A stretch of DNA of 64,000 bases from an uncultured Ruminococcus sp. (GTDB lineage Bacteria > Bacillota > Clostridia > Oscillospirales > Ruminococcaceae), in the NCBI GenBank assembly GCA_902781565.1, contig CACZJT010000005.1:11902-75901 (forward strand), in the 5' to 3' direction. A program made the position numbers and the translations under genes. Under the pieces are notes generated by a model that saw nothing but the letters and a program-made list of their open reading frames with translations, was not told the DNA's origin and searched no databases. Position 1 is the stretch's first letter; each line of letters opens with the position of its first letter. Below, one piece after another: positions 3,770-41,647 of this stretch.

Positions 3770-4016
3770 CCGCATAAAGGCGCTTCGCAGACTACAGGCG
3801 GCAAAATTCGCCCTGCATGATGCAGCGCTCTATCTCGACAGCCACCCCAAATGCCAAGAGGGGCTGAGGTATTTCCGCGAAAAGCGCGAGCTCGTCGAAA
3901 AGCTGACGAAAGAGTACGAGAAGGAATACGGTCCGCTGACAGCCGCTGCCTCCTGCGCGGAGGAGCGCTGGGACTGGGTCTGCACGGCGTTCCCGTGGGA
4001 AAGGGGTGAAAGCTGA
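3759..4016 (+). CDS. cotJB: Spore coat protein CotJB
   Basis: ALYLDSHP...YEKEYGPL...WDWVCTAFPWE. Confidence 0.92.
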   Translation: MENDRIKALRRLQAAKFALHDAALYLDSHPKCQEGLRYFREKRELVEKLTKEYEKEYGPLTAAASCAEERWDWVCTAFPWERGES

Positions 4017-4108
4017 TGTTCATGTATGAAAAGACCTTGCAGTATCCCGTAAACATCAAAAACCCGAACCCCGCGCTGGCGAAGGTTATCATAAGTCAGT
4101 TGGGCGGA
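4016..4108 (+). CDS. cotJC: cotJC 5' segment (codons 1-31); in the lysogen it reads on into ANSKKIYHL-stop at 4138
   Basis: MFMYEKTLQYPVNIKNPNPALAKVIISQLGG; ATG overlaps the cotJB stop. Confidence 0.9.
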
Positions 4109-4128
4109 GCAAATTCCAAAAAGATATA
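4099..4128. other. Left attachment junction: core GTTGGGCGGA (4099-4108) and attP arm CCAAAAAGATATA (4116-4128)
   Basis: Core identical to 41134-41143; arm is the exact reverse complement of 41120-41132. Confidence 0.92.
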
Positions 4129-4226
4129 TCACCTGTAAAATCAATGATTTTAGGGCAATAAGTTTGACAAAGGTTATATAAATTGCAATACCTCCACAAT
4201 GTCGAAAAATGTCGATAAAATACCCC

Positions 4227-4330
4227 TTGACAACCTGCCCCGGGCGTAGTATAATAATACACAGAGAGAATGATTCATTTTTAAAAAGAGACAGGGAAAG
4301 GTCTGTCCGCAAATTGCGGACAGGCTTTTT
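4227..4330 (+). ncRNA. Putative ~70-nt small RNA with its own promoter and terminator
   Basis: TTGACA(4227)-17-TATAAT(4250), then hairpin GTCTGTCCGC-aaatt-GCGGACAGGC-TTTTT ending at 4330; no RBS-led ORF. Confidence 0.5.
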
Positions 4331-4378
4331 CTATTGCGCAAAAAAGCCCCTCGAGCCTTGCGACCCGGGGGGCTGTCG

Positions 4379-5587
4379 TCATCTCATGACCAACCTAACA
4401 AAATTTTCTCCGATCACGCCCGTCTGCTTGTAGCCCATTTTGCGCTGCAAGTCCTTGACGGCGGCTTCCGTTCCGCCGCCGAAACCGCCCGTGTCATCGA
4501 GCTTGTAGCCGAGAGCCTTCATGCGCTGTTTTATGGCGAAGATCGAATGCTCGCCTGCCTTGTCCTTGTCGCCGCGCTTGTACCAGATCGCGGTGTCGAG
4601 GGGCTTCAGCGCAGGCTCGGCGGCGCTTTTAGGACGCAGAACGCCGAGGACGGGGCTGCACCCGTCATTTCCTCCCGAGCCGTTGAAATAGTGCTTGACG
4701 AGCTGTGTCGGCTCATGCCTGCCGAGAGTGTTTTCTTCGAGTGTGACGAACCGATCTTCGTCGCCCTCGCCGTTTCCGATACCGACGTGTCCCCACGAAC
4801 CGCCGCCCCAGATCACCACGTCGCCTTTTTTAACAACGAGTTCGCGGGTATTGGGTATCCTGTCAAAAGCCTTCACAAGCGCGGGATAGCTCTCGAATTT
4901 GTTGTACAGGTCTTTTGCGCCGTTGCACCACACGCCCGTTATCCCGAAGCAGTCTTTAAGGTATTGATCGAACAGGTCAACGCACTGCACCCCCGCAACG
5001 CCATCGAAATCCACCGCCTTGCCGAGATACTTTTTCTCAAACTCGTTATAGGTCATGTACTTTGAGGGCGTAGACGTTGCCGCACTCAGACGCTTATTGA
5101 CCTCGGCGGCGATGTACGGAAATTTGCCGCCGAGATACGGACCGGGACAGCCCGTCGCGGCGAACCACTTGTGCATCGTGAGATTTCCCGACGTGTCGCC
5201 CGTGAAGTTCAGCCGAGCTATATTGTTGCGCTTGCAGATGTCCGCGCACAGCTCGATCAGGGCGGCGAGCGCCTTGTCGGAAACGTGCCAGTCGGGCTCG
5301 CCGCCGTCGTTTGCGACCTCGATCGTGACGGCGCGGTGGTCGTTCTCGGCATTCGAGCTGCACCAGGAGCGGTTCGCTTCGTCCACGTACAGCGCGATCC
5401 TGCCGTCCGAACCAATGCCATAGTTGGAGCTTGCCTGCCTGCTCACGGGCGCGAACACCTCGCCGCACTGCTCGACGGTCAAGTTCCCCGCCATGTGGTG
5501 AATGGTGATCGTGTCGATCTTGTGGCTGCGCGGCTTGTTGCAGTTGGGTGACAGCCGCGTGTAACAGATCAGTTTGCTGTTGCTCAT
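4379..5587 (-). CDS. Endolysin: amidase_2 + CHAP + peptidoglycan-binding domain
   Basis: ITIHHMAG...SSNYGIG...TIEVAN...MHKWFAATGCPG; DFDGVAGVQCVDL...WGHVGI...EEN; C-terminal DDTGGFGGGTEAAVKDLQ; start at MSNSK. Confidence 0.9.
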   Translation of the reverse strand: MSNSKLICYTRLSPNCNKPRSHKIDTITIHHMAGNLTVEQCGEVFAPVSRQASSNYGIGSDGRIALYVDEANRSWCSSNAENDHRAVTIEVANDGGEPDWHVSDKALAALIELCADICKRNNIARLNFTGDTSGNLTMHKWFAATGCPGPYLGGKFPYIAAEVNKRLSAATSTPSKYMTYNEFEKKYLGKAVDFDGVAGVQCVDLFDQYLKDCFGITGVWCNGAKDLYNKFESYPALVKAFDRIPNTRELVVKKGDVVIWGGGSWGHVGIGNGEGDEDRFVTLEENTLGRHEPTQLVKHYFNGSGGNDGCSPVLGVLRPKSAAEPALKPLDTAIWYKRGDKDKAGEHSIFAIKQRMKALGYKLDDTGGFGGGTEAAVKDLQRKMGYKQTGVIGENFVRLVMR

Positions 5588-5588
5588 A

Positions 5589-5687
5589 TTATACCTCCTT
5601 CCGTCCCGTCTGCACACCATAGTTCCCGTCGAAGTCCATGCCTTTGTCGTTTACAGAGCGGAAGTATTCGTCAAATGTCATTTTCAT
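5589..5687 (-). pseudogene. Truncated N-terminus of a second CHAP-type lysin fused to the last holin codons
   Basis: MKMTFDEYFRSVNDKGMDFDGNYGVQ|TGRKEV; resembles MTYNEFEKKYLGKAVDFDGVAGVQ in the endolysin; good RBS AAGGAGG. Confidence 0.7.
5594..5613. repeat. 20-bp direct repeat, copy 1
   Basis: CCTCCTTCCGTCCCGTCTGC, identical to 8547-8566. Confidence 0.9.
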
Positions 5688-5698
5688 GCTGTACCTCC

Positions 5699-6730
5699 TT
5701 AGCCGAATAAAATCAGCGGGCGCACGTAAAGCGCGAAGGATGCGCCAGTGATGTGGGCACCGCCGTAGTTGTTGCAACGAGCGAAAGTCGTAGATGAAAC
5801 GACACTGCGCAGCCAGAAGTCGAGACGACCAAATTGCATGGGATTGATAAATTTGAATACAGGTAACTGCCTGTTATCCGCACCCACATCATACGCGGAG
5901 CTGGACCATACCGTAGACTCGTAAAGCTGTACCTCGTTCATGAGCTGTAATTCGATGGTGCCCCAAGCCCAATTGCTTGATGCGCCCGTCATACCTGCTC
6001 CAGCCATTGAGGGGATACTTGCATTAATTGCATTCGGTAATATAGTTCTGTGCGACAACAAGTGATTATTCAATGCTGTCTTAAGACTTGCGGCATAGCA
6101 AGGGAGCACTGTCTGATGCATATATGAGTTGAGATATCCGCCCTCTGTGGTGTTGGTTTCGTTCATTTTTGCTGTAGTCGCAAAACCCGCACCTCTCGGA
6201 ATAAACACGAGATGGGGTTTATTTAATGGGGTGTCTCCTATATTATAATAGTAGTTGAATGCGGCTATCATCAATTCCACGGTCTCGATCTTGATTGTTC
6301 CATCAGGGAGTGTTGTAGTTATGGTTACAGGAAAGTAGTCTCCGAGGTACAAGTCAGAAAAATCGCCGCTTGAAACCTTGTCGTGAAGTGTTTCTATAAA
6401 CGAAGAAACCTCACTTAACGTACACAATTGCTTCCCTCTGTATATGCCGTTGTGGTTTTCGACCGTGTTCACTTCTCCTCCCATAATATACGGCAATTCA
6501 GAAAATCTTGAACGCCCATTACCAAGTTTTATTTGTATACATCTGTCGTATTCCGGAAAGAATGTCCCCTCGGTCTGATCTAAACCCGTCGTCGCAGCGG
6601 CAATTTCAAACTCGCCTATGACGGGGTCTTCATCAAGCCATGTGTATTCGGAATTATACTTCACTCTTGCTTTCTCGTCTTTGACCTCGTACGTCGTGCC
6701 ATTGACAGTTATTTTTGAAATATCAGCCAC
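5699..6730 (-). CDS. Putative receptor-binding/tail fibre protein with DGR-target-like (CLec/DUF6273-like) C-terminus
   Basis: GDFSDLYLGDY, MNETNTTEGGY, FWLRSVVSSTTFA...VRP; GTG start after GAGG. Confidence 0.7.
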   Translation of the reverse strand: MADISKITVNGTTYEVKDEKARVKYNSEYTWLDEDPVIGEFEIAAATTGLDQTEGTFFPEYDRCIQIKLGNGRSRFSELPYIMGGEVNTVENHNGIYRGKQLCTLSEVSSFIETLHDKVSSGDFSDLYLGDYFPVTITTTLPDGTIKIETVELMIAAFNYYYNIGDTPLNKPHLVFIPRGAGFATTAKMNETNTTEGGYLNSYMHQTVLPCYAASLKTALNNHLLSHRTILPNAINASIPSMAGAGMTGASSNWAWGTIELQLMNEVQLYESTVWSSSAYDVGADNRQLPVFKFINPMQFGRLDFWLRSVVSSTTFARCNNYGGAHITGASFALYVRPLILFG

Positions 6731-6744
6731 CTCATCACCCCCCA

Positions 6745-7755
6745 TCACGATACGGTAATGGTCGCGCCTGTTCCGTTGAATGTCGGCTGAGATACGGAGC
6801 CGTTTGCAGTCGTTGTGCCGGCAAGCTGTACTTTCGTGCCCGTGAATGTGGGCTGCGATACGGAGCCTCCTGGCGTGCCTGCTACCGAAATATCGCCCTC
6901 CGTTCCTGTGAATGTCGCCGTGTATGTGTTCGGAACAGGAATATTGCCTGTTACAAGTCTTGCGCCTGTCCCTGTGAAAGTCGGCTGTGTTACCGATTTG
7001 ACGGACGTTGCGACCGTTGTATTAGCGCCCTTTGTCGGCAGGGTGCCTTGATTGAACGATATCGTCAGATTTTCATTTGCAACAGTTGTCGTCAATGTCG
7101 GAAGTGTTCCAACCGCTGTTATGCTGTTCACGGTCGTTGTATTGAGGGTTACCGCCGCGCCGGTGCAGTTGCCCGCAGGCGTATATGTCGCTGTTCCGGT
7201 GGTCGCGCTTACAGTCGTGGTCTTGTTTGTTGTCGCGTTGGTCGTTACTGTCACGCTTCCCTCGGGAGTGAATTTTCCTGTTGAAGTTGTCGATGTTCCT
7301 GTGAAAGTGGGCTTGCTTACTGTTCCGGCGGGGGTATAATTTCCGTTTGTGTTGTCGGTGACTGTTATTGTAACATTGCTCGAACTTCCCGTGAACGTCG
7401 GCTTTGTGACCGTACCCGCAGGGGTATACGAAGCCGAAGCCGTGTCTTTGAATGCAAGGGCTTTCAAGCTCCCCGTTGAGCCGAACTCCTGCCACTTTGA
7501 GCCGTTCCACACGAACTCCAGATCGCCGTAAATTACAGTAGCACCCGCGTCATCAGCCGCAAATGTTCTGCTTTCGCCGTCAATAACGAGTGTTGCAGTC
7601 GTCGAGCCGTCGGTCAGAGCCGTGGTTGTTATGCCCACGTAGAACATAGCACCGGTCAGGTCAACTTTTATGTCGGCTATTTCCTGTCTTGCGACGGCGT
7701 CCTTAATGTCGTATGTAGTTCCAGAAGGTAAAGTTATTTTGGATATATCAGGCAT
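6745..7755 (-). CDS. Thr-rich repeat tail/virion protein
   Basis: Repeated YTPAGTVSKPTFTG-type units; N-terminus MPDISKITLPSGTTYDIKD. Confidence 0.7.
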   Translation of the reverse strand: MPDISKITLPSGTTYDIKDAVARQEIADIKVDLTGAMFYVGITTTALTDGSTTATLVIDGESRTFAADDAGATVIYGDLEFVWNGSKWQEFGSTGSLKALAFKDTASASYTPAGTVTKPTFTGSSSNVTITVTDNTNGNYTPAGTVSKPTFTGTSTTSTGKFTPEGSVTVTTNATTNKTTTVSATTGTATYTPAGNCTGAAVTLNTTTVNSITAVGTLPTLTTTVANENLTISFNQGTLPTKGANTTVATSVKSVTQPTFTGTGARLVTGNIPVPNTYTATFTGTEGDISVAGTPGGSVSQPTFTGTKVQLAGTTTANGSVSQPTFNGTGATITVS

Positions 7756-7767
7756 TGTTATTCCTCC

Positions 7768-8160
7768 TTAATCTGTATAAAAAATTACGTTTTCAAAATT
7801 TTCTTCGTCAAGTCGAACAGATACTTTATTATTCCAAAAGTCTATCTGCTCCTGCGTAACACCGCCCGAATAAGCAAAAGGTAAGTCAATCAAATACGCT
7901 TTCCCGTCGCCTATCTTGATGTTCGGCACATTGTTTTCAGATTCGTCTTTTGTGTAATCCGTGTACACATAGATCGTGTTTTTCTTGGCAATAAGGTCTC
8001 TGTCGGCGTTCCATTCGTCGGTGGTGCGCGAGATAATGTTTCGACAGGCGTAGCCGAAGCCGATGTTTCCCGACACACTGCCCGTGCCGTTTATCTGTCC
8101 CGAAACTGCCGCACGTCCCGCGACCGCTCCGCTTATCTTTCCGCGCTGTTCATCGTTCAT
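7768..8160 (-). CDS. Small tail fibre-associated protein (Mtd-N/hyaluronidase-N-like motif)
   Basis: TTDEWN...IKIGDGKAYLIDLPF. Confidence 0.6.
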   Translation of the reverse strand: MNDEQRGKISGAVAGRAAVSGQINGTGSVSGNIGFGYACRNIISRTTDEWNADRDLIAKKNTIYVYTDYTKDESENNVPNIKIGDGKAYLIDLPFAYSGGVTQEQIDFWNNKVSVRLDEENFENVIFYTD

Positions 8161-8540
8161 GAGCCGTCACCGCCCGTCAGGTCCTTGTACGTTCCGACTG
8201 CGGGAGTGAGGATAAACGGCGATTTTGGGATAAAAGTGTATGCTTCGCCCGATGAATACACCAGCACAATATCGTAGGTGTACGCTCCCTCGGGTCGGTT
8301 CACTGTGTCGGACGGCTCTATGTTAAGTGTCAGGGCGTGGGTGTCGGGGTCCTGGTCTCCCGCGCCGAGCTCTTTCTGAAACATCACCTTCCCGAGAGTA
8401 TTCTTTATCGTGAACAGAACCTTGTCCCCCGCCGAAAGAATGACAGGATCGTCGGGAGTTACCATGTACGGCGTGATCTCGAGCACCGCCGTATTTCCGC
8501 GGGTGAGCCTTATCTCTCCGCTGCCTTGTATTTCAAGCAT
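8157..8540 (-). CDS. BppU-N-like baseplate/fibre attachment protein
   Basis: IRLTRGNTA...DKVLFTIK...IEPSDT...GAYTYDI. Confidence 0.6.
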   Translation of the reverse strand: MLEIQGSGEIRLTRGNTAVLEITPYMVTPDDPVILSAGDKVLFTIKNTLGKVMFQKELGAGDQDPDTHALTLNIEPSDTVNRPEGAYTYDIVLVYSSGEAYTFIPKSPFILTPAVGTYKDLTGGDGS

Positions 8541-8541
8541 T

Positions 8542-8724
8542 TTATTCCTCCTTCCGTCCCGTCTGCGTTCCGAAATAGAACGCTATGACGACCGTAAAAA
8601 TGTTCATGAACTGCTCCCCCGAAACGACCTCCCGCCACGCCAGCCCGCAGAAAACCGCGGTCAGAGCGAGGGTCACGAGGGATTTCACTTTAAGAAGTCC
8701 CGCCATTCTTTGCTTTAAGCTCAT
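8542..8724 (-). CDS. Holin (two TM helices)
   Basis: LLKVKSLVTLALTAVFCGLAW...FMNIFTVVIAFYFGTQ; start position approximate. Confidence 0.75.
   Translation of the reverse strand: MSLKQRMAGLLKVKSLVTLALTAVFCGLAWREVVSGEQFMNIFTVVIAFYFGTQTGRKEE
8547..8566. repeat. 20-bp direct repeat, copy 2 (holin 3' end)
   Basis: Identical to 5594-5613. Confidence 0.9.
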
Positions 8725-8953
8725 GCATTTCACGCTCCAGTGTTTTGACCCGCTCTTCGAGAACGGGCATTTGCCTTGCGAAATTGTTGTGCTCCCGAAC
8801 CTCGGCTATGAGGTTGTCGAGCTTCGTATCCGTGACTGCCTGCACTGTTTCGAGCCGATGTGTCATTTCCCGATTGGCGGCGCGGGTGTTGATGATGACC
8901 GTCACGATCGCCACGAGCCCCGAAATAATGCTGATTATTATGCTCACGTCCAT
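8690..8953 (-). CDS. Lysis-module membrane protein (N-terminal TM plus coiled coil)
   Basis: VREHNNFARQMPVLEE motif; immediately upstream of the holin. Confidence 0.65.
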   Translation of the reverse strand: MDVSIIISIISGLVAIVTVIINTRAANREMTHRLETVQAVTDTKLDNLIAEVREHNNFARQMPVLEERVKTLEREMHELKAKNGGTS

Positions 8954-8962: not shown

Positions 8963-9542
8963 TCAATCCCCGAGGGCGATGATGCCGTTGTAAAAATACT
9001 CCCTGCCGTTCGCGGTGAGTTTTGATACGACCCTGAAGTATTGAGTGTACGGAGTAAAATAAACGTCGGGCGTATAGCTTTCAATGTTTGCACCAAGAGG
9101 GATTGGCACAAAGGCTGTCGATCCTGCCGCTTTCATAGCATCACTTGGCGAATATACGAATTCATACATTGCTGTGCTATGAACAATATCGGCGCATTTA
9201 TAATACAAGCTCGATGTTGAGCTGCTTTCCTGACCGCAGAACAGTATCGCAGTCGTACCCATACTTGATTCGGTGATCCACACGGTGCTGTAATCCATCA
9301 CAAGCACAAGTCCCTTTGAAGTTTTGACAGCTTGTCAGTGTGATCTTTATATTCTTGGACGTTCCGTCGAATCCAAGTGTAAGCACGGGGGTCTCGCCGA
9401 CATAACAGGTGATATTGTCTGTTGCTCCGTCCATCTCCACGCTGTCAAAATAGCCCTCCTTGTTCGCATTCAGGAACGCATAGACCTCGGGAGCGTTTGC
9501 CGCCTGAGTTCTCCCCGTGAAAACCGTTTTTTCTATCGCCAT
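8963..9542 (-). pseudogene. Tail-distal protein split by a frameshift or internal deletion near 9330
   Basis: Frame 1 ...KNIKITLT continues in the +1 frame as AVKTSKGLVLVMDYSTVW...NGIIALGD. Confidence 0.55.
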
Positions 9543-9543
9543 T

Positions 9544-10245
9544 TCAGATGTCCTCCTTTTCCGCCTTGACCGTCAGCGCCGAGAGCATTTGCGCGGAGAG
9601 GGAGGCGCTGACGGGGGCGCTGACGGGGGCGCTGCCGCCCGAATCGCCGCCTATCCGATCATCGCCCACGTACAGCGACGTCCCATCGGTCTCGCCGACG
9701 ATGTACATGGTACTCGCCGAATGCGTTTCCATAGCGTCGTACTGCGCCCGTGTGAGCCGCTCGAAACTCATGCCGCCCAGCGCCCCGAAGCCCTGCACAT
9801 AGCCGCACACAGCGCTGTCCGCGCGCTCGTCGATGACCTGCACGACACCCTCCGCACCGACTATCAGCACAGCGAGGGAAATGTCGTAAACCGTACTGTT
9901 TCGCACGAGCGGCGCGGGGGCGTTAGCCGTGCCCTGTGCTATCATGAGCGTGATGTTCCGAGCCGCCTGCGAGAGATCGAGCCGCAGTATCACGCGGTCG
10001 TACCGCACCCCGCCCGTGGTGCAGGCAGCGGCTGTGAGGGTCTCGGGCTCGGTCAGCTCCACCCAGCGGGCTTGGAGAAATCCCCACCCCGCCGACACGC
10101 TCACAGTAAGCCCCGAAGCCGTGACCTCGAAGCCGCCCTCGATAACTCCCGAGGGTATCAGCCGAAGAAAATAGTCCGTGAGGTCGGCGGCGCTGTAGAG
10201 CCTGTCGCCGTCCGCGCTGTCAAAAAATCCGTACTGTATCGCCAT
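9544..10245 (-). CDS. Baseplate/tail protein
   Basis: YGFFDSADGDRLYSAAD...RYDRVILRLD...DERADSAVCGYV; LTRAQYDAM repeat. Confidence 0.75.
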   Translation of the reverse strand: MAIQYGFFDSADGDRLYSAADLTDYFLRLIPSGVIEGGFEVTASGLTVSVSAGWGFLQARWVELTEPETLTAAACTTGGVRYDRVILRLDLSQAARNITLMIAQGTANAPAPLVRNSTVYDISLAVLIVGAEGVVQVIDERADSAVCGYVQGFGALGGMSFERLTRAQYDAMETHSASTMYIVGETDGTSLYVGDDRIGGDSGGSAPVSAPVSASLSAQMLSALTVKAEKEDI

Positions 10246-10256
10246 TTTGCACCTCC

Positions 10257-10291
10257 TACAAACTATAAATTACAAACTACAAACTACAAAG
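10257..10291. repeat. Heptamer tandem repeat (TACAAAC) x5, degenerate
   Basis: TACAAAC TATAAAT TACAAAC TACAAAC TACAAAG. Confidence 0.8.
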
Positions 10292-11741
10292 TCGTCCAGT
10301 CCGAGAACGTCGGGAAAATGCGGTAGCCCTCCGCGTCCTCGACCTCTGTTATCGCCGTTATTTTTGCCGAGCCCCGCACTCCACGAGCCGTTTCGAGGTA
10401 GACCGTGTCGCCCAGGTCGTAATCGACGCCCGCCTTGTAAAGCCCCGTGTCGGCGATCTGCGCGTTCAGGATTTTCAGCGGCGGCGTTATCCCCGAAGTG
10501 CCCCGCTCCGTGACGTCGGCTTTGTAGTCACTTATCCCGCGGGCGCGGAGTATCTGCGCCTTTGCGGAGGTCAGGTCGGAGGGCGATATGGTCTCGCCCG
10601 TGTACGGCGAAAGCGTGACCCTCGCATAAACCGCGTTTGCAGGCGGGGTCAAGGTTGTCCCGCTCGTTACAACTCCCGGTGATGAGTAGGGGATGTACTC
10701 ACGATTGTGGTCGTAGTAAAGGATTTTGAAGTACAGGGTCTTGTTGCCCGTGCTTCGCGCCGCCGTTATGCTGATACGCTTTCCACACTCGACATACTCT
10801 CCACATCGTATAGACAGGTCGGTAGACACGTCGCTGCCGTCCATACTGCTGTACGTCCCCTGTTCCCAAGTGTACTCCTTGAGGTCAACGCTCACGCTCT
10901 CCTCGGTCGGCACGCCGCTCACACTCATGCTCCCCTCGCGGCGGTCGAAGCCCTGCGAAAGGAAGCTCCCCGCCTGCCGCACAAGGGTGTACGGGTTCGA
11001 GCCGTCCGCCTGCGTTTCGCTGTCGGGTCCCGTCGCGGACACAAATACCACGTTGCATTTATCGCGGATATCCACCTCGTACTCGCAGGAGATCAGCATT
11101 TCGTTGTCCGCCGAAAAAACGACGTGAGGCTTGTCCGAGCCGCGGTAGAACTCGAACGTGAAAACGCCGCCGATGAGCCTGCACCTCAGTCCGCGCCCGA
11201 ACTCGCGGAGCAGTCCGTCAACCGCCGTCAGAAGGTTCTCGCCGCCGAATGTCCGCGTGATGTTGTCCCCGGGGGCAGAGGGTGATTCCACCTCCAAAGG
11301 CGCGAGCTTGCGTGCCGTAGGGTCGTAGCTGTAGTCGCTCTCGATCACCTCGGGGGCAATCATATTGGCGAGCATGAGGTTTCGAGCCACCACCATTGGC
11401 GGATAGTGAGCGTATGTAGTCGGATACCCCACGACCCGCGAAGTCATCACTGCGTCCATAGTCCGCCCGCCGATCAGGATAGTTTCGCCCTCGGCGCTCT
11501 CGGAGAGCTTGAAATCCTCGATGTACATGGGGATATCGTCCCCCTCGCGGGTGACGACGAGCACCCCGATATCCGCGGCGAGAAGCGTGAAAAGCTCCGC
11601 GCTTGACGGCAGATAAAGCTCGAAATTCCCCGGTTCGTCAAAGCACCTCACCCACCGCACGGAGATCGGGCTGTCGATGACCGCGACGGGGTAGACCTCG
11701 CCGCTGACACCGCCTATTTTTTGAATATAGTAGACCATCAC
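10284..11741 (-). CDS. Tail hub/Tal-like protein (ReqiPepy6 Gp37-like)
   Basis: WVRCFDEPGNFELY...YKAGVDYDLGDTV...ITAITE; follows Dit. Confidence 0.8.
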   Translation of the reverse strand: MMVYYIQKIGGVSGEVYPVAVIDSPISVRWVRCFDEPGNFELYLPSSAELFTLLAADIGVLVVTREGDDIPMYIEDFKLSESAEGETILIGGRTMDAVMTSRVVGYPTTYAHYPPMVVARNLMLANMIAPEVIESDYSYDPTARKLAPLEVESPSAPGDNITRTFGGENLLTAVDGLLREFGRGLRCRLIGGVFTFEFYRGSDKPHVVFSADNEMLISCEYEVDIRDKCNVVFVSATGPDSETQADGSNPYTLVRQAGSFLSQGFDRREGSMSVSGVPTEESVSVDLKEYTWEQGTYSSMDGSDVSTDLSIRCGEYVECGKRISITAARSTGNKTLYFKILYYDHNREYIPYSSPGVVTSGTTLTPPANAVYARVTLSPYTGETISPSDLTSAKAQILRARGISDYKADVTERGTSGITPPLKILNAQIADTGLYKAGVDYDLGDTVYLETARGVRGSAKITAITEVEDAEGYRIFPTFSDWTTL

Positions 11742-12595
11742 ACACCCCCGAAAAGCCGATACACCGATATCGTCACCGCCGCATTGTCAATGCCGCTGTC
11801 TGCGGTCACGCCCAAGCGGTTCGCACCGACGGCAAGTTTGAGCCACCGCGACCCGCTCACCATGTACCGCAGGAGATTCGTGACCGTCGTCCCCCGCGTG
11901 ACCTTGACCGCGAGCCGCCCGCTCCGAGTGTCAAGGGTCAGCTTGTCCCCCGCCGCAAAGCTGAAATCGAGCTTGAACCAAGTCCCAGCCGTTTCGTTGG
12001 CGAACCGCAGACCCGTCACCGCGCCCGAGAACGTGACCTCCGCCACAAAACCGCACTCCACATCGCCGCTGTTGAGTATCAGCGAGGTCGGGTGATCGAC
12101 CACCTCCGACACGGGTATAGGCTCGCCCTCCTCGATGGCAAACGGCGCGGAGAACAGCGGAACAGAGTAGGACGGAATGAAGTCCTCGGGCGTGACCGAT
12201 TCGAGCCACGGGGAGGGGCAGCGCAGCGTGATGTCAACCTTCTCGGCGGGGGCGTAGATGTCGGGCTCGTGGGTCTCGACATAGCCGACGGTCTTTACGC
12301 TCCGCAGGCGGTTCGCGAACACGAGTGTCACGGGCTTTTTCGGCGTGAACGCGCGGTAGAGCCGCAGGCGGTTCTCCTCGACGTCCCCCGCCATGACAAG
12401 GTGCAGGACGATCGTGCGCTCCCGCGCGTGAGCCGCCCCGAACACCGACCCGTCCCCCGCCCCCGAGGAAGCCGCGATATCCGTCGCGGGAGGACCCAAG
12501 CCCTCAACATCGGTGAGGACAAAGCGGTCGAATGCGCGGGAAAGCTCCAGCTCCTCGCCCGCCGCGTTTATCACCGAAAGCGTGTATTCGTACAT
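11738..12595 (-). CDS. Distal tail protein (Dit)
   Basis: Follows TMP; EGLGPP...RERTIVL...VEENRLRLY...WLKLAVGAN. Confidence 0.8.
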   Translation of the reverse strand: MYEYTLSVINAAGEELELSRAFDRFVLTDVEGLGPPATDIAASSGAGDGSVFGAAHARERTIVLHLVMAGDVEENRLRLYRAFTPKKPVTLVFANRLRSVKTVGYVETHEPDIYAPAEKVDITLRCPSPWLESVTPEDFIPSYSVPLFSAPFAIEEGEPIPVSEVVDHPTSLILNSGDVECGFVAEVTFSGAVTGLRFANETAGTWFKLDFSFAAGDKLTLDTRSGRLAVKVTRGTTVTNLLRYMVSGSRWLKLAVGANRLGVTADSGIDNAAVTISVYRLFGGV

Positions 12596-15363: not shown

Positions 15364-15364
15364 T

Positions 15365-15996: not shown

Positions 15997-16012
15997 TCGG
16001 AAGCCCTCCTTT

Positions 16013-16579: not shown

Positions 16580-16581
16580 TG

Positions 16582-18816: not shown

Positions 18817-18846
18817 AGTGTCATACCTCCTGAATTTAAAATATTT

Positions 18847-27447: not shown

Positions 27448-27448
27448 A

Positions 27449-29872: not shown

Positions 29873-29883
29873 GACCCCGCCTC

Positions 29884-31839: not shown

Positions 31840-32444
31840 AGCGGCAGACCCGTGATCGGGTCAACGGCAGGAGCACCGCCGGGATAGAACATTGGCGCGG
31901 ACTGAGCCGAAGGAGCACCGCCAAAGGCGTCGGCTACCGATACCCCGCCCCCGAGGGGGTCCCCGTCACGGAGCTTCTGGACGGCTTCAAGCCCGAAGCC
32001 TATGCCGCGCTTGCCGTTTGAGTTGTAGGCGAACATGGAGATGCACACCCTCGCGTAGCAGCCCGAATACAGCTCGCCCTTCTGCATGATGGGGTTCATG
32101 CCCGCGTCCACGAGCTGTACGGGGTTCCTGCTCGACGCCGTGAACACCCAATGACCCCTGCACTCCGCGCCGAACTGCTCCCCGTTCGGGCGCACTCCGT
32201 CGCCGTCATATACGGGCAGCGCAAGCACGGGAGGCTGTACGCCGTTCCACTTTTCCGCGATACCCTTCTGCGTGGTATACTGAACGGCAGCGTCGAGCCT
32301 TGCCTTTGCCGCCGTATCCGACTTCGGCATGAGTACGGTAACGCTGTACTTGGGCTCGCCCCCGTTATTGCTGTAGGGCTCGTAAAGGTGTGCGTAGGAC
32401 AGGCGTACCTCGCCCGTTGTCATCTGATTCTGATTAAGTGCCAT
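31836..32444 (-). CDS. ssDNA-binding protein (DUF2815, gp2.5-like)
   Basis: VRLSYAHL...KYSVT...DGD...YSGCYAR...GLEAVQKLRDG. Confidence 0.88.
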   Translation of the reverse strand: MALNQNQMTTGEVRLSYAHLYEPYSNNGGEPKYSVTVLMPKSDTAAKARLDAAVQYTTQKGIAEKWNGVQPPVLALPVYDGDGVRPNGEQFGAECRGHWVFTASSRNPVQLVDAGMNPIMQKGELYSGCYARVCISMFAYNSNGKRGIGFGLEAVQKLRDGDPLGGGVSVADAFGGAPSAQSAPMFYPGGAPAVDPITGLPL

Positions 32445-32457
32445 GATCTTTTCCTCC

Positions 32458-33612
32458 TTAGTTATCTTTGAACATTTCGGCTATTCTCGTTTGCGAGAAC
32501 GCCTTTCTTTTATCACTTTCGGGTACCAGCGTCGGTTTGCCCGAAGGCTTCGTGATGTAGTTCCCGATAAGCTCAGTCAGCTTCTTTCTGCCGCAGAGCT
32601 TTTCGAGTGCGGTAAGTCCGAGGGGCTTGCGTTCGTAGAGCAGCTCACTGCCGTACCCTGCGGCTTCCAGCGCTGCAAAGGCTCCGTTTATATCGGAGAT
32701 GGCGCGAACGCTCCGCCCCTCTACGAGCTTCCAGTGAGGAACGGGTTCTCCGCGCAGCAGCTTATCGTACACGTACTCCTCCAGCCCCTTGACCCACCCT
32801 GCGAGCAGCTGCGCCCTCAGAAGAACCTCTCCGATCTCCTCGTCTGTCAGCATTTCGCCGCGGTCCTCGCGGGCTTTCTGTTCCTCCGCGGAAAGCAGCA
32901 TTTCCGCCCGTGCGCGGCATTTTGCTTTAGCCTTGCAGAATCGGCAATGCTCACCCGGGACGAACTCGCCGCCCGCAGCGATCGAAGCCTTCACCCTGCG
33001 CCCGAACTTGTCGCCCCATGCGGTCAGCTCCTCTGCGGGCATACACGCCGAACAGATGTTATCTATCCGCGGCTGAATGATATTCATGAAAACTGTTTTG
33101 ATCTTTCCGAATACCGAATATTCTCCGATCGCGCCGAGAGCATAGAGCCGCAACTGTGGGTTATTCTCCGCGCTGACCGAAACGCCCTTGCCGTACTTGA
33201 AGTCGAATATGTGAAGTATTGTTCCGTATAATACGATACAATCCGCTGTTCCGAAGCAGTCGGGGACGATGTGCCCCATGTCAAGGCGTTTTTCAACTAT
33301 AACATAGGGCTTTTCGGGGAAGGCGCAGCAGACCTTCATTATCTCATCGGCATAGATGTCCGTGTATTCCTCCATCTCCTTCTGATACAGTGGGTCGGCG
33401 CGGAGCATATCCAGTCTGCTTTTGCACACATCTGCGGGCAATAGACCGAATCGACTGCACAGCTTCAGCTCGGCGATAGCGTGCGCCAGCGTCCCCTCTG
33501 CGGCGTATTCGCTGTCCGTTTCGGGGATATTCTCCTCGGCTCTGACCGAAGCCGTACAGGTGCCCCATACCGCCGCATGAGAGGGGGAGTATCTCGCGTG
33601 TATCCCGGGCAT
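32458..33612 (-). CDS. PD-(D/E)XK exonuclease (DUF2800)
   Basis: HARYSPS...EGTLAH...FGTADC...DFKYGKG...NPQLRLYALG. Confidence 0.88.
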   Translation of the reverse strand: MPGIHARYSPSHAAVWGTCTASVRAEENIPETDSEYAAEGTLAHAIAELKLCSRFGLLPADVCKSRLDMLRADPLYQKEMEEYTDIYADEIMKVCCAFPEKPYVIVEKRLDMGHIVPDCFGTADCIVLYGTILHIFDFKYGKGVSVSAENNPQLRLYALGAIGEYSVFGKIKTVFMNIIQPRIDNICSACMPAEELTAWGDKFGRRVKASIAAGGEFVPGEHCRFCKAKAKCRARAEMLLSAEEQKAREDRGEMLTDEEIGEVLLRAQLLAGWVKGLEEYVYDKLLRGEPVPHWKLVEGRSVRAISDINGAFAALEAAGYGSELLYERKPLGLTALEKLCGRKKLTELIGNYITKPSGKPTLVPESDKRKAFSQTRIAEMFKDN

Positions 33613-34076
33613 CAGATAAGACCACCCATCGCTCTGAGACGCGCCGCAAAATCCGCCCGTCTGTCCTCGGGGAGCGCCGCTACAGACTGCACCCCGAACT
33701 CCGCAAGAAGTGCTATAAGCTCCTGCTGTCTGCCGTTTTCCATGAGAGGGCGCGCCGCCAGTCCCAGTTGAGGGATAGTGTAATGCTGTACCGTCGTCTG
33801 TGCGGGGATAGCAGCAGGCGCGGGGGGCGTTACGGGTATCGGGGCGGGGGACGGAGCGGCGGTCGGTATCGCGGTGGTATTAGCTGCTATCTGTGTGGCG
33901 CTCTCCTCAAACAGCGGCTCTCCCGTCTCCGCGGGGGCTGACGAGGCGGTATTACGCGCTTTGATAAGCCCCAGCACGGCGCTCGCCTGTTCTACCGTGA
34001 TCTCGTTGAGTGTAAGTGTTACTGTCATTGTCGATTCCTCCAATTCTAATTTTCCTGTGGGATATTTTATGTTCAA
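33612..34076 (-). CDS. Hypothetical replication-module protein
   Basis: Pro/Ala linker then LLAEFGVQSV..LP...FA..LR; typical position before DUF2800. Confidence 0.65.
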   Translation of the reverse strand: MNIKYPTGKLELEESTMTVTLTLNEITVEQASAVLGLIKARNTASSAPAETGEPLFEESATQIAANTTAIPTAAPSPAPIPVTPPAPAAIPAQTTVQHYTIPQLGLAARPLMENGRQQELIALLAEFGVQSVAALPEDRRADFAARLRAMGGLI

Positions 34077-36370: not shown

Positions 36371-36568
36371 TTAAGTTCCGTATTTTTCAACTATCTTCCG
36401 CGCCTCATCGGGGCGGGCGGAGAGGGCGGTGCCCATCGCTTCGGCGAACCTCTTGCCCAGCTCTCCGCGCACCTCCGCGCGCTTCTCGGGCGGAAGATCG
36501 TCTAAGACCACCCTGACCCCGTTCACGCTGACCGTGCTTATTACCTTGTACTCATTCATCTTTGCCAT
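36371..36568 (-). CDS. 65-aa protein behind a sigmaK-like promoter; candidate recombination directionality factor
   Basis: ORF with RBS GAGGTG; function inferred from context only. Confidence 0.55.
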   Translation of the reverse strand: MAKMNEYKVISTVSVNGVRVVLDDLPPEKRAEVRGELGKRFAEAMGTALSARPDEARKIVEKYGT

Positions 36569-36586: not shown

Positions 36587-36613
36587 ATTATATGCGGGTG
36601 CGGTTGTCCGTGT
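36587..36613 (-). promoter_or_regulatory. sigmaK-like promoter inside the early phage operon
   Basis: ACA-16 nt-CATATAAT, same geometry as the cotJA promoter. Confidence 0.55.
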
Positions 36614-36629
36614 TGATTCGTGTTGCGGC

Positions 36630-37697: not shown

Positions 37698-37940
37698 TTA
37701 CAGGGTCGTTTCACTCACGTTGGCGTTTTTGCCTACATCGTCAGCAAAAAAAATAGCCTGCTGTTCATGCTCGGATAGTCCGAGCAGCTGTATCAGCTTT
37801 TTGATTTCGGACCCTTTAAACTCTCTGACACCGTTGAGTTTGTTATACAACCCTTGCCTTGTAAGACCGAGTTCCTCGGCGATCGAGTTTTTAGAGAGTT
37901 TACATTCCTCGATCTTTTCGCTAAGTATCTGACTGTTCAA
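37698..37940 (-). CDS. Cro-like HTH regulator
   Basis: IAEELGLTRQGLYNKLNG.REFK.SEI...AIFF; divergent from the repressor. Confidence 0.85.
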   Translation of the reverse strand: MNSQILSEKIEECKLSKNSIAEELGLTRQGLYNKLNGVREFKGSEIKKLIQLLGLSEHEQQAIFFADDVGKNANVSETTL

Positions 37941-37957
37941 AAAATCACCTCCGTTCT

Positions 37958-38125
37958 TTGTAGACTACTTGTCTACAATAACATTATACACCCTGTAGGC
38001 GTAAATGTCAACATATTTTTACCTAAAATAATGCACAAACTTTTGTAGTCTTTTTTGTCTACAATGTCAATTTATTTTTACAGGTGTAAATAATTGTTGA
38101 CATTCGCGGAAACAGATGATATAAT
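37958..38125. promoter_or_regulatory. Genetic switch: two divergent consensus promoters and palindromic operators
   Basis: Minus TTGACA(38011)-17-TATAAT(37988); plus TTGACA(38097)-17-TATAAT(38120); TTGTAGAC-5-GTCTACAA at 37958 with variants at 37994 and 38043. Confidence 0.8.
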
Positions 38126-38145
38126 TATTGCATGGAGGTGATACT

Positions 38146-38796
38146 ATGACAATAGGCGAAAAGATCAAACAGGCGAGACTTGATAAAGGACTTACGCAAG
38201 AGGAGCTTGCTTCAAAACTCGGATATAAGTCTCGTTCGTCTGTCAATAAGATAGAAACGGGAGGCAGAGATATTCCCAGAAGTCAAATTAAAAAGATTGC
38301 AGAAATACTTCAAGTTTCCCCTATTTCTTTATTGGGCTGGGAGGACGAACGACCCGCCTGCGACGACCTTTCCGTGCTCTCCGAGCGTTACGACAATATC
38401 CTGCCCGTGAAGCTGAAACGCTTTCCTCTCCTCGGAGAGATCGCCTGCGGTGAGCCTGTTTTCGCCGATGAGGACAAGGAAAGCTATGTAATGGCTGATA
38501 TGGATATACACGCTGATTTCTGCCTTCGGGCAAAGGGAGACAGCATGATAAATGCCCGTATCTTTGACGGTGATCTTGTGTTCGTCCGTAAAATGCCGAT
38601 AGTTGACAACGGTGATATCGCCGCAGTCATCATAGAGGACGAAGCGACCCTCAAACGGGTCTATTACGACAGAGAGAATAACCTTTTACAGCTCGTTGCC
38701 GAGAACCCGAGATATAAGCCCTTTGTTTACAGAGGAGAGGAGCTCGACCATGTCCGCATACTCGGCAAGGCTGTTTATTTTATGAGTGCATTATAA
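38146..38796 (+). CDS. CI/LexA-like prophage repressor (HTH + S24 peptidase)
   Basis: XRE HTH, IACG cleavage site, GDSM serine, ATLKR lysine. Confidence 0.92.
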   Translation: MTIGEKIKQARLDKGLTQEELASKLGYKSRSSVNKIETGGRDIPRSQIKKIAEILQVSPISLLGWEDERPACDDLSVLSERYDNILPVKLKRFPLLGEIACGEPVFADEDKESYVMADMDIHADFCLRAKGDSMINARIFDGDLVFVRKMPIVDNGDIAAVIIEDEATLKRVYYDRENNLLQLVAENPRYKPFVYRGEELDHVRILGKAVYFMSAL

Positions 38797-38973: not shown

Positions 38974-39528
38974 ATGGCTATAAAGGAAAACGAAAAGCCG
39001 CGCCTGAATGCGGCGCAATTTACTGCTGTGACCAAATTCAGCAATGAACGGCTGGAGCTTTTAGACGGCGAGATAGTGGCGCTCGGCGCGCCCAGCGAAC
39101 TTCATCAAACGATCGCGGGACGCTTGTTTTCAAGTCTTGACGGACATACCATCAAGAACAACGGAAAATGCAAGGTACTGATCTCGCCCTTTGAAGTTGT
39201 GCTTGACGATGATAATGTAGTCCAGCCCGATCTGCTCGTTGTGTGCGACCGAAGCAAGCTCGACGGCAAACGGGCAAACGGCGCTCCCGATCTCGTTATC
39301 GAGATACTGTCCGAAAGCAGCAGAAAACGCGACCTTGTGGACAAATACGTACTATACGCAAACAGCGGCGTCCGCGAATACTGGATAATCGACCCCTCCG
39401 AGGAAAGAACCATAGTCTATCTTTTCGGTGAGACTATCCGCATCGGATTCTACCCCTTCGACAAGCCTATCCCCGTGGGTATCTGGGACGGTGCGCTTGA
39501 AATAACAATAGCCGAACTGCTCGGCTGA
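38974..39528 (+). CDS. Uma2-family endonuclease
   Basis: ELLDG...P..LH...VQPD...GAPDLVIEILS...K..LY...GVREYWIIDP. Confidence 0.9.
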   Translation: MAIKENEKPRLNAAQFTAVTKFSNERLELLDGEIVALGAPSELHQTIAGRLFSSLDGHTIKNNGKCKVLISPFEVVLDDDNVVQPDLLVVCDRSKLDGKRANGAPDLVIEILSESSRKRDLVDKYVLYANSGVREYWIIDPSEERTIVYLFGETIRIGFYPFDKPIPVGIWDGALEITIAELLG

Positions 39529-39609
39529 AACGCACTGTGAAGCCCTCTGACACCCCTCAAGCCGAGGGGGTATAACTTTACCCCATGAACGCACAAAGCC
39601 CCTCACAGC

Positions 39610-39640
39610 GCATTTTCAGCACCGTGAGGGGCATATGATA
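39610..39640 (+). promoter_or_regulatory. sigmaE/sigmaK-like promoter motif upstream of the recombinase
   Basis: GCATTTT-15-CATATGATA, ending 17 nt before the ATG, overlapping a GC hairpin. Confidence 0.4.
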
Positions 39641-39657
39641 AGATAGGAGATGATATC

Positions 39658-41106
39658 ATGAAAACTGCCGCCGCGTATATCCGCGTTTCCACCGACGATC
39701 AGGTGGAGTTTTCGCCCGACAGCCAGCTCAAAGCCATTCGCAAGTACGCCAAGGACCATGACTTCGTACTGCCTAAAGAGTTCATTTTCGTTGACGAGGG
39801 CATAAGCGGACGCACCGCCGCAAAACGCCCCGAGTTCAACCGCATGATCGGCACGGCTAAGTCTACCCCGAAGCCATTCGACACCATACTGCTCTGGAAG
39901 TTCAGCCGTTTCGCCCGCAACCGTCAGGACAGTATCGTTTACAAATCCATGCTCCGCAAGCAGTGCGGCATTGATGTTGTGAGCGTGTCGGAACAGCTGG
40001 GCGAGGACAACACCTCTATCCTCATCGAAGCGCTCATCGAGGCTATGGACGAATACTACAGCCTGAACCTCGCCGAGGAGGTAAAGCGCGGCATGAACGA
40101 GAAGTTCTCCCGCGGAGGTGTGGTCTCACAGCCACCTTTCGGCTACAAGATGAAGGACGGCATTTTCGCTCCCGATGAGAACGCCGCGCCGATCGTCCGC
40201 ATGATCTACGCCGACTATCTCGCAGGTAAGGGCGCGCGTCAGATCGCTAAGGAGCTGAATCACAAGGGCATTACCACGAGCAAGGGAGGGAAGTGGGAGA
40301 ACCGCACCGTCGAGTACGTCCTGACCAATCAGACCTACCTCGGCAAAATGCGCCGCAGCACCGACCCGCGTAATAAGTACGACCGCTTCCACGAGGACGT
40401 GAACCTCGTTGACGGCGCTCACGAGCCTCTGATCTCCGAGGAGACCTTCGCCGCCGTGCAGGAACGCCGCGCCGAGATCAAAAAGACCTACGGCAAATAC
40501 GCTCGTCATGCTCCCGTGAATTTCATGCTTAAAGGCGTAGTCCGCTGTGACAATTGTGGTGCGACCCTCGTTGCCACCGCCAACCGCGACCGCCTGCAAT
40601 GCCATAACTACAACCGCGGCACCTGCAATGTCTCGCATTCCGTGAGCATTGAAGCCCTCACGCGGCTGGTGCTCGACAAGCTCCGCGCGGATATGGAGTG
40701 TGCCGATACCGAGGTGGAGATCGTGACCACTGCCGCCGCCGAGAACGTTCACGAGGACGACACGGAGTTCCTGCTCTCGCGCGAGTACAAGAAGCTGGAG
40801 CGTATCAGGGAAGCCTACGAAGCGGGTATCGACACCCTCGATGAGTACAGGGTGAACAAGCAGAAGATACAGCGGCGCATTGACGAGATCAGAGCCGAAG
40901 CGGAAGCCGCGAAGCCTGCTCATGTCCTGACCTCCGAGGAGAGACAGCAGGCAGTCCGCGCGAGGATACGTCTCGGGCTGGACACTCTTGCTTCCCCCGA
41001 TGTGAGCGAGACCACCAAAAACGAAGTCCTCCGCTCACTGGTAGAGCGCATAGTTTTCGTCAAGCCGAAAAAGGTGATAGAGATAGTCTATAAGGGCGAT
41101 TTTTAG
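39658..41106 (+). CDS. Large serine recombinase (integrase)
   Basis: YIRVSTDDQ catalytic Ser, SRFAR, recombinase domain, CDNCG zinc ribbon, coiled coil; ends next to the att junction. Confidence 0.96.
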   Translation: MKTAAAYIRVSTDDQVEFSPDSQLKAIRKYAKDHDFVLPKEFIFVDEGISGRTAAKRPEFNRMIGTAKSTPKPFDTILLWKFSRFARNRQDSIVYKSMLRKQCGIDVVSVSEQLGEDNTSILIEALIEAMDEYYSLNLAEEVKRGMNEKFSRGGVVSQPPFGYKMKDGIFAPDENAAPIVRMIYADYLAGKGARQIAKELNHKGITTSKGGKWENRTVEYVLTNQTYLGKMRRSTDPRNKYDRFHEDVNLVDGAHEPLISEETFAAVQERRAEIKKTYGKYARHAPVNFMLKGVVRCDNCGATLVATANRDRLQCHNYNRGTCNVSHSVSIEALTRLVLDKLRADMECADTEVEIVTTAAAENVHEDDTEFLLSREYKKLERIREAYEAGIDTLDEYRVNKQKIQRRIDEIRAEAEAAKPAHVLTSEERQQAVRARIRLGLDTLASPDVSETTKNEVLRSLVERIVFVKPKKVIEIVYKGDF

Positions 41107-41119
41107 TGCGGGTTTGGGG

Positions 41120-41143
41120 TATATCTTTTTGGGGTTGGGCGGA
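41120..41143. other. Right attachment junction: arm TATATCTTTTTGG (41120-41132) and core GTTGGGCGGA (41134-41143)
   Basis: Matches the left junction. Confidence 0.92.
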
Positions 41144-41647
41144 CCGGACGGAGAGGTCGGCGCGGCTATGCGCTATCTCAACCAGCGCTACGCCGCTCCC
41201 TGCCGCGAGGTACAGGGGATACTGACGGATATAGGCACCGAAGAACTGGGTCACATGGAGATGGTATCGGCTATTCTTTACCAGCTCACCCGCGGGCTTT
41301 CGATGAAGGAGATCAAGGAGTCGGGGTTTGACGCTTATTTTGTCGATCATACTACGGGTATCTACCCCGCCGCCGCTTCGGGTCCGGCATTTACTGCGGA
41401 TTATATCCAGTCCACGGGCGACCCGCTTGCCGACCTGCATGAGGATCTCGCCGCCGAACAGAAGGCGCGGCTTACCTACGATAATATCCTTCGGCTTGCC
41501 GACGATCCCGACGTCCGCGACCCTATCAAGTTCCTCCGCGAACGCGAGATAGTGCATTATCAGAGGTTCGGCGAGGGCTTGCGGAAGATCCAGGATATGC
41601 TCGATTCCAGGAACTTCTACGCCTTTAATCCCTCATTCGATAAATGA
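41144..41647 (+). CDS. cotJC: cotJC 3' segment (manganese catalase family, 167 aa)
   Basis: PDGE...RYL.QR...DIGTEELGHMEM...DLAAEQKAR...REREIVHYQRFGE; in frame with the 5' segment across the core. Confidence 0.93.
   Translation, partial: PDGEVGAAMRYLNQRYAAPCREVQGILTDIGTEELGHMEMVSAILYQLTRGLSMKEIKESGFDAYFVDHTTGIYPAAASGPAFTADYIQSTGDPLADLHEDLAAEQKARLTYDNILRLADDPDVRDPIKFLREREIVHYQRFGEGLRKIQDMLDSRNFYAFNPSFDK

Follow-up and report, generated by a model that had tools for sequence, protein, structure and literature searches.

The question raised by this locus is whether a prophage lodged in the spore coat gene cotJC is removed on schedule during sporulation or is an ordinary lysogen that happens to reside there. 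The stretch analyzed, referred to here as the window, is 64,000 nucleotides of an uncultured Ruminococcus sp. (GenBank assembly GCA_902781565.1, contig CACZJT010000005.1, positions 11,902 to 75,901 of the forward strand). In it the only cotJC found in the genome of this bacterium is interrupted after codon 31 (between Gly31 and Pro32) by a siphoprophage of 37,035 bp. The presence of a serine-integrase prophage inside cotJC is well supported, and we regard it as real with next to no reservation. As for its role, we favor, at a probability of about 70%, the reading that the phage is a developmental switch of the SPbeta type. It would be excised in the mother cell through a predicted 65-amino-acid factor with a likely sigmaK/sigmaE promoter, rebuilding cotJC there while the spore keeps the prophage.

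The split cotJC gene

The cotJ genes and the integrase at the right end of the prophage are arranged as follows.

3527..3769, plus strand: cotJA (Pfam CotJA, E = 7e-16)
3759..4016, plus strand: cotJB (Pfam CotJB, E = 2e-25); its stop overlaps the cotJC start codon
4016..4108, plus strand: cotJC 5' piece, codons 1-31; runs into 9 phage codons, with a stop at 4138
39658..41106, plus strand: large serine integrase, 482 amino acids; PF00239 (Resolvase), PF07508 (Recombinase), and PF13408 (Zn-ribbon); phrog_95 integrase
41144..41647, plus strand: cotJC 3' piece, codons 32-198; Mn_catalase match; carries every presumed Mn ligand

Deleting in silico the 37,035 bp between the two copies of a 10-bp core sequence joined the pieces into a 597-nt frame, free of stops, for a protein of 198 amino acids. 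The rejoined CotJC aligned without gaps to intact CotJC from 11 genomes of the same genus, with 78 to 94% identity, and differed from its closest intact relative by silent changes in 91 codons and residue-changing ones in 11. The 5' piece corresponds to positions 1-33 of the Pfam Mn_catalase model (PF05067) and the 3' piece to positions 29-196. Residues E35, E65, H68, E136, E166, and H169, which we take to be the Mn ligands, all lie in the 3' piece. A cotJA-cotJB-cotJC operon with an Mn_catalase domain and the presumed metal-ligand pattern is present, and the rejoined protein is a putative Mn catalase.

The host assembly is a draft of 236 contigs (2.87 Mb, 87.7% complete), in which the two pieces were the only Mn_catalase matches. 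The sequence-only reading had proposed that a full-size prophage with a large serine recombinase at one end splits cotJC, and it had allowed for a second intact copy elsewhere. The split is borne out by the core at both ends, the in-frame rejoining, and the identity to intact relatives, and the full-size prophage by its Pfam and PHROG modules and the 482-residue integrase; no second cotJC was found in the 87.7%-complete assembly. Among 15 other genomes of the genus, 12 had a full-length, unbroken Mn-catalase gene, 1 had fragments at the ends of contigs, close to this break, and 2 had no match, indicating that the element is an insertion and not a fixed trait of the genus.

Attachment sites and the excised form

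4099..4128, plus strand: attL; core 4099-4108, likely crossover GG 4106-07, phage inverted-repeat arm 4116-4128
41120..41143, plus strand: attR; phage inverted-repeat arm 41120-41132, core 41134-41143, likely crossover GG 41141-42

The 10-bp core occurs only at these two places in the window and 4 times in the 2.87-Mb genome. When the phage ends were rejoined, the resulting attP had a perfect 13-bp inverted repeat (41120-41132 and 4116-4128) centered on a GG within the core, and 14 of 16 arm positions paired. The rejoined host site, attB, had no comparable symmetry. The most likely crossover, as judged from this arrangement, is the GG at 4106-07 and 41141-42. The integrase ends 28 nt before the right core, and Ser11 in its catalytic region was invariant in 33 relatives.

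Two sequencing runs were informative; those sharing few of the window's words (X7-X20) did not enter the evidence. Run X1, a bovine gut metagenome according to its record, held 0.95 of the window's sequence words and is likely the source run. Single contigs of X1 spanned attL and attR without differences, at a depth of about 11 that equaled that of the host. An artefact of metagenome assembly might be suspected in a draft of 236 contigs, but these junction-spanning contigs of even depth, as well as the symmetry of the att sites and the site specificity of the whole family described below, make that explanation hardly credible. Run X2, from a different study, yielded a 1,643-nt contig that matched window 40500-41142 with 27 differences in 643 nt. 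Beyond 41142, 27 of 30 letters equaled window 4108-4137, which is a joined attP, and the host flanks had a depth of 0-4 versus 12.8. Therefore, a near-identical (ca. 96%) phage exists in the excised attP form. The X2 junction places the crossover at or before 41142; the tenth core base was not matched in this relative. None of the data sets listed as holding window 3300-9000 was an RNA data set.

The integrase family and its target

Relatives of the integrase were encoded in 296 genome stretches, and the best 80, which had 47-65% identity and for the most part bore the title Ruminococcus or Oscillospiraceae, were analyzed. Carriers of the family in culture include Ruminococcus flavefaciens SAb67 (L004) and Marasmitruncus massiliensis (L064). 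A cotJC half broken at this same codon adjoined the integrase in 68 of these 80 loci, with the integrase followed by the 3' piece in 37 and by a reversed 5' piece in 31; 4 loci ended at a contig edge and 8 were arranged otherwise. Among 80 viral loci, 21 had the 3' piece, 1 had the reversed 5' piece, and 20 ended at an edge. The gap-free rejoined protein and the return to the same codon in 68 of 80 loci are more than chance. Of 46 unplaced loci, 32 had an attP in which 11 or more of the 16 arm positions paired, 14 centered on GG and 18 on CC, a score reached at only 5 of 4,923 GG/CC centers of the prophage.

The two orientations appear to reflect inversion of the attP core. Inner bases resembling the 5' half of attB shifted together with the central dinucleotide, suggesting en bloc inversion of an 18-bp core between the arms. 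Integrases 94-96% identical were found in opposite orientations in cotJC (loci L007/L010/L012/L090/L098 and L033/L034/L043). Orientation as a trait of integrase clades was ruled out, with at least 22 changes among 90 labeled rows of a FastTree tree. We infer template switching between the arms as the cause of the inversion. No description of orientation flips with attP-core inversion was met in the literature, in which no search was aimed at it.

The orientations also bear on whether a functional CotJC could be made without excision. A shortened protein might start at a TTG in the phage arm (41114, 41129, or 41135). All the presumed metal ligands lie within the 3' piece, a frame of 177 codons is open from the TTG at 41114, and some in-frame start codon was present at 43 of 54 distinct forward junctions. 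However, a start together with a ribosome-binding motif was present at just 1 of the 54, the common TTG is supplied by the T-run in the att arm, and at several junctions a stop follows within 5 codons. Furthermore, in the 31 of 68 loci in which the element is reversed, the TTG arm does not precede the 3' piece at all, and here 37 kb separate that piece, which is missing 31 conserved residues, from the cotJA promoter. Such a bypass, which the sequence-only reading had raised for the TTG at 41114, is very improbable.

Not all members of the family are phages. Four complete elements were just 3.2-5.4 kb long, with no match to capsid, terminase, portal, or tape-measure proteins, and complete elements of 3.8 and 4.1 kb retained the integrase and the small gene considered in the next section without any phage hallmark gene. 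The split halves of cotJC were intact in all 32 of the 5' pieces and in 27 of 32 long 3' pieces; of the remaining five, 1 was at a contig edge and 4 were broken again further on. Remnants also carried cargo (L017:681-2691; L047:758-2350; L197:1324-2424), comprising a Y-family polymerase pair, an AbrB/MazE-type regulator, and a metallophosphoesterase.

The additional breaks in cotJC fell at particular places. A second break at residues 62-65 occurred in 19 forward loci, 11 of which had a second, distant integrase in reach, and further breaks were located near residues 136 and 178. The breaks at 62-65 and 136 were often beside other serine integrases, and some cotJC genes were in three pieces (loci with further breaks: L014, L020, L023, L032, L037, L193-L196, L066, L200-L201, L093, L102, and L126). 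These sites (62-65, 136, and 178) are empty in the cotJC of this window. Two loci were unusual in other ways. In L246 (7658-9915) the cotJC 3' piece that follows the integrase is encoded on the other strand and points its C-terminus at the integrase, an arrangement that simple insertion does not fit. In L164 (G034:C19), from a 55%-complete genome, cotJC has att-arm-like letters and a stop at codon 30, possibly a scar or a misassembly.

A candidate directionality factor

36371..36568, minus strand: 65-amino-acid candidate recombination directionality factor; phrog_26314 (unknown function); predicted beta-hairpin and two helices

This gene is in the early operon on the cro side of the lysogeny switch. 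The next gene begins 13 nt after its end, and no terminator-like site is listed right behind it. An iterated profile seeded by 36371-36568 collected 51 open reading frames (ORFs), the window copy and those of 50 of the 160 integrase loci; every one is encoded on the other strand from its integrase. The count of 50 is a floor, because the fetched flank was 3 kb and the window copy is itself 3,090 nt away from its integrase. Sixteen homologues were within 320 nt of the integrase start, and none of these had a CI match in the fetched stretch; 34 were 0.9-2.8 kb away, 14 of them with a CI match. In the remnants L017 and L047 the small gene is divergent from the integrase.

The association was also apparent when genomes were searched with the small-gene profile alone: 250 genomes from the order yielded 5 matches and 400 from the family yielded 14. 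An integrase of this clade was within the fetched stretch for 14 of these 19 matches, and a cotJC half adjoined 12; after removal of the 2 that repeat earlier loci, the counts were 12 and 10 of 17. The gene family has 488 representatives at 50% clustering. The homologues had no Pfam family in common, and their sole PHROG match was phrog_26314, in 21 of 33 members. The predicted model of the 65-residue protein (pLDDT 89) had no fold match in the PDB at E <= 0.001, the ESM Atlas returned unnamed clusters only (below 0.9), and a scan of viral contigs with the protein alone gave no confirmed relative. Its size and context fit those of CD1234 (72 amino acids), SprB (58 amino acids), and GirX (42 amino acids). 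Other small early genes were ruled out as the directionality factor, none being shared with the remnants. The 65-residue protein is likely the directionality factor of this integrase because its gene travels with the integrase, survives in remnants that are no longer phages, and is preceded by the promoter motif described next.

Promoter motifs and host sporulation genes

36587..36614, minus strand: mother-cell-type promoter motif of the 65-amino-acid gene, AACA-N16-CATATAAT; 18 nt upstream of the start, with an internal GGACAA
3449..3476, plus strand: promoter-like motif of host cotJABC, sigmaK type, CACA-N16-CATAATAT; a match to the strict pattern

The full sigmaK and sigmaE pattern letters used here are those that we take to be the consensus, and the internal GGACAA presumably represents a SpoIIID-like box. 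A -10 box at 20-34 nt was found in 28 of 44 distinct small-gene upstream regions versus 94 of 638 control ORFs, and a combined motif (-10 box plus GGACAA or GTACAA) in 20 of 44 versus 17 of 638. In later loci the -10 box was found in 15 of 19 regions and the combined motif in 7 of 19 (13 and 6, respectively, among the 17 new ones). No other phage ORF among the 48 control ORFs of the window had the combined motif. Many small-gene upstream regions also carry ATA at the sigmaE distance.

In the host genome the strict sigmaK-type pattern matched upstream of 6 of 1,656 ORFs, versus 1.7 in shuffles. The six were cotJA, the 65-amino-acid gene, an asparagine synthase gene, an Amidase_6 gene, and two unnamed genes. 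The sigmaE-type pattern had 1 match, a spoIIIAA-like gene. SigmaE and sigmaK recognize a common -10 box and differ at -35 (ATA versus AC), and the cotJ operons of Clostridioides difficile are sigmaK dependent (PMC3789822). The motif of the 65-amino-acid gene may be read by sigmaK or sigmaE, with SpoIIID. Upstream of the integrase (39600-39640, plus strand) a CATATGAT box overlaps a hairpin.

By its gene content the host is a putative spore former. Its spo0A, spoIVA, spoIIID, and small acid-soluble spore protein genes scored above the family cut-off. The sigK-like gene is unbroken and above one of two cut-offs, and the sigE-like gene, which like the spoIIIAA-like gene fell below the cut-off, is intact. 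No skin element was seen in the host sigK-like gene, whose open frame is intact.

Proposed mechanism and alternatives

In the proposed mechanism, sigmaK or sigmaE, perhaps with SpoIIID, would transcribe the 65-amino-acid gene in the mother cell, and its product would turn the integrase toward attL × attR recombination, cutting out the phage. This would restore cotJC behind cotJB, under a promoter of the same class as that of the small gene, and the forespore would retain the prophage. The small gene's position in the cro-side early operon means that DNA damage would be expected to express it too, through cleavage of CI, which has an S24 peptidase domain. A hairpin near 34133 may keep mother-cell transcription away from the replication genes. 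Developmental excision, as the sequence-only reading had it, gains indirect support from the candidate factor with its mother-cell-type motif, the phage-less remnants, and the intact halves. The further claim that completion of the spore coat depends on the phage recombinase is not supported and goes too far, as published C. difficile mutants show no significant coat defect.

Several observations weigh against a developmental switch. According to the published descriptions, C. difficile cotCB and cotD mutants have reduced catalase and no significant coat defect, and the catalase activity of CotJC seems unimportant to coat assembly (PMC11222575, PMC3533761). With so slight a phenotype, selection for excision may be weak. 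Twelve of the 15 other genomes of the genus have the gene unbroken. No attB or attP contig was among the X1 pieces listed, although contigs drop rare variants. The combined motif was defined after the first set had been viewed and was found in only 7 of 19 later loci, the motif of the 65-amino-acid gene also scores 10/12 as a sigma70 site, and a loose -10 box was present in 27 of 137 integrase upstream regions. For five of the 19 small-gene matches, three of which are near-identical kin, the fetched stretch contained no integrase, and the homologue in remnant L197 was below threshold (E = 0.02). In Bajarodcaudo virus 3 (PQ006094.1) the homologue of the 65-residue protein (E = 1e-10) lies across attP and lacks the promoter motif. 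Finally, the host spoIIE-like gene fell below the family cut-off, and the host is a putative spore former.

Some of these points could be accounted for if the phage were an ordinary lysogen in a dispensable gene. The conserved Gly-Gly-Pro-Asp codon run would then be its landing site, excision would be spontaneous or follow stress only, and spores would form without CotJC, or sporulation would be seldom. Loss of CotJC with little coat phenotype, a CI/S24 switch and full virion set befitting a mobile phage, the lack of an excised form among the X1 pieces listed, and a promoter motif readable as weak sigma70 would all be expected. However, such a lysogen does not account for phage-less remnants that retain the integrase and the small gene, for a motif that stands at a fixed distance in phage and non-phage members alike and resembles the host cotJA promoter, or for split halves that show no decay. 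We consider this explanation unlikely, though worth keeping in view.

It is also conceivable that the sporulation-type promoter starts both excision and phage development, with virions leaving at mother-cell lysis and the spore keeping the prophage. The promoter is within the early operon, with the next gene 13 nt on and no terminator-like site listed right behind, the genome looks complete, and a near-identical phage has been seen excised. Yet the terminator-like hairpin at ca. 34133 is ahead of the replication genes, the combined motif precedes no other phage ORF among the 48 window controls, and SPbeta is reported to produce no particles upon sporulation excision (PMC4191935). Such an exit is improbable.

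A broader proposal is that a widespread gut phage family wires its excision factor to mother-cell sigma factors, with a promoter in the early operon that both restores cotJC and launches phage development in the doomed mother cell. The family would flip its orientation by inversion of the 18-bp attP core and would have cotJC in common with as many as three further integrase families, which would oblige some hosts to carry out two or three separate excisions to restore one coat gene. Taken as a whole, this proposal is decidedly doubtful. The developmental switch, limited to excision in the mother cell, is the reading that we retain.

Gene content of the prophage

A Pfam scan of 80 and a PHROG scan of 59 chosen window ORFs placed the remaining modules as follows.

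4379..8953, minus strand: lysis region; endolysin (Amidase_2/CHAP/PG-binding) 4379-5587, putative holin-like small membrane genes 8542-8953
9198..24396, minus strand: virion module; tail, Dit, tape measure, tail tube, connectors, major capsid, scaffold, large terminase, portal, minor head, HNH (Pfam and PHROG)
24597..34076, minus strand: replication module; SNF2 helicase, VRR-NUC, primase/helicase, DNA polymerase A, single-stranded DNA-binding protein, exonuclease
37698..38796, both strands: lysogeny switch; cro-like helix-turn-helix gene 37698-37940 (minus), CI-like helix-turn-helix and peptidase S24 repressor gene 38146-38796 (plus)
38974..39528, plus strand: Uma2 (putative restriction endonuclease family) cargo (Pfam)

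With complete virion, replication, lysis, and repressor modules, the phage appears intact, as judged by its genes. A terminator-like hairpin stands at ca. 34133, in front of the replication module, and two divergent sigma70 promoters, each scoring 12/12, lie between cro and CI. No small terminase was identified by family search. In 19320-23965 (minus strand) the order is minor head, portal, large terminase, scaffold, and capsid, with portal upstream of terminase.

Four unannotated genes between the endolysin and the holin-like gene (5589-8541) vary among relatives; a contig of run X2 omits 2,953 nt, and runs X3 and X4 have partly other sequence. This cassette is possibly related to tail fibers or the baseplate. 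A YozE_SAM-like gene (37274-37558, plus strand) with its own 12/12 sigma70 promoter is inserted against the early operon, and it and Uma2 are likely cargo expressed in the lysogen. At 4227-4370 (plus strand) a near-consensus sigma70 promoter precedes a short hairpin-bearing stretch, directed into the phage against the endolysin 3' end. Copies of it, 79-90% identical, are on contigs C47 and C12. It is a possible small RNA; Rfam at the gathering threshold gave 0 matches in the whole window. Eleven more Recombinase-domain matches were found in the host genome, on contigs C2, C12, C23, C47, C77, C86, C103, and C150.

Comparison with known systems

If the proposed mechanism is correct, developmentally excised prophages, known from Bacillus and pathogenic clostridia, also occur as a large family in commensal Clostridia of gut and rumen, a family that spans the full series from intact mobile phage to 3-5-kb remnants. 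The importance of the locus is limited, since systems of this kind are already established and loss of the target gene probably has mild effects. What is added here is an unnamed 65-amino-acid gene that travels with the integrase and has a motif like that of the host cotJA promoter. The locus offers a testable unit of an integrase, attB and attP confirmed by a natural excised form, a candidate factor, and a candidate mother-cell promoter. The integrase and the 65-residue protein might provide a new pair of integrase and directionality factor for genome engineering, and the flips in orientation, with the attP core inverted, add a minor point of mechanism.

The sequence-only reading had left open whether elements that target cotJC were already described. 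They are mentioned in print from in silico work. One preprint lists cotJC as an interrupted target, citing Abe et al. 2013 (bioRxiv 10.1101/2021.11.22.469490), and another reports a cotJC-interrupting element of Laceyella sacchari (bioRxiv 10.1101/2022.02.25.481979). These elements, described in one-line mentions, share the target gene family and are of the skin-like type. The main text of the preprint of Durrant et al. contains none of the terms 'catalase', 'cotJ', or 'spor', and its supplements may list a cotJC target. No experimental study of a cotJC-splitting element was found in the literature searched, most subscription papers and preprint supplements being outside it. The C. difficile phage phi027 was rejected as a cotJC interrupter, as by its published description it is beside a CotJC-like gene and not inside it.

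Bajarodcaudo virus 3, a 32-kb circular phage from woodrat faeces, has an integrase 51.5% identical to this one, followed by an attP-like site of the same type. Its gene layout is unrelated, and no host or target is annotated. PhiS63 of Clostridium perfringens, an inducible 33.6-kb siphophage in sigK, has a 10-nt core and excises precisely (PMC3442830). It is, as here, a phage in a sporulation gene with a 10-nt core, but its target is sigK.

Directionality factors expressed in the mother cell are established (PMC5025042, PMC6957869, PMC5595907), and further elements are known, such as yin in yabG (PMC10747680). The skinCd element of C. difficile, 14.6 kb in sigK, has the integrase CD1231 and the 72-residue factor CD1234 under sigmaE and SpoIIID (PMC5025042). 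It combines a clostridial integrase with a small factor that has a mother-cell promoter and a SpoIIID-like box, as is predicted for the present phage, and the 3-5-kb remnants of the present family are similar to skin. In contrast to skinCd, which interrupts the essential sigK, an intact-looking phage here occupies a gene with a mild phenotype, and the host sigK-like gene is unbroken.

A close parallel in the proposed mode of action is SPbeta, an active prophage in the sporulation gene spsM of Bacillus subtilis with the integrase SprA and the directionality factor SprB (PMC4191935). There, as here, a prophage with a large serine integrase at one end splits a gene for the spore surface, which is a late mother-cell gene in the case of spsM and putatively so in that of cotJC. 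A small factor under both lytic-operon and mother-cell promoters was demonstrated for sprB and is predicted here. The two differ in that SPbeta is much larger, whereas the present phage is a 37-kb siphophage with a CI/S24 switch and cotJC as its target, and its small gene belongs to the early operon, 3 kb away from the integrase, and does not lie across attP. No Bacillus SPbeta-like record was among the 20 best integrase matches. Thus, the phage would work like SPbeta but is not a Spbetavirus, its 37-kb genome being built of other modules.

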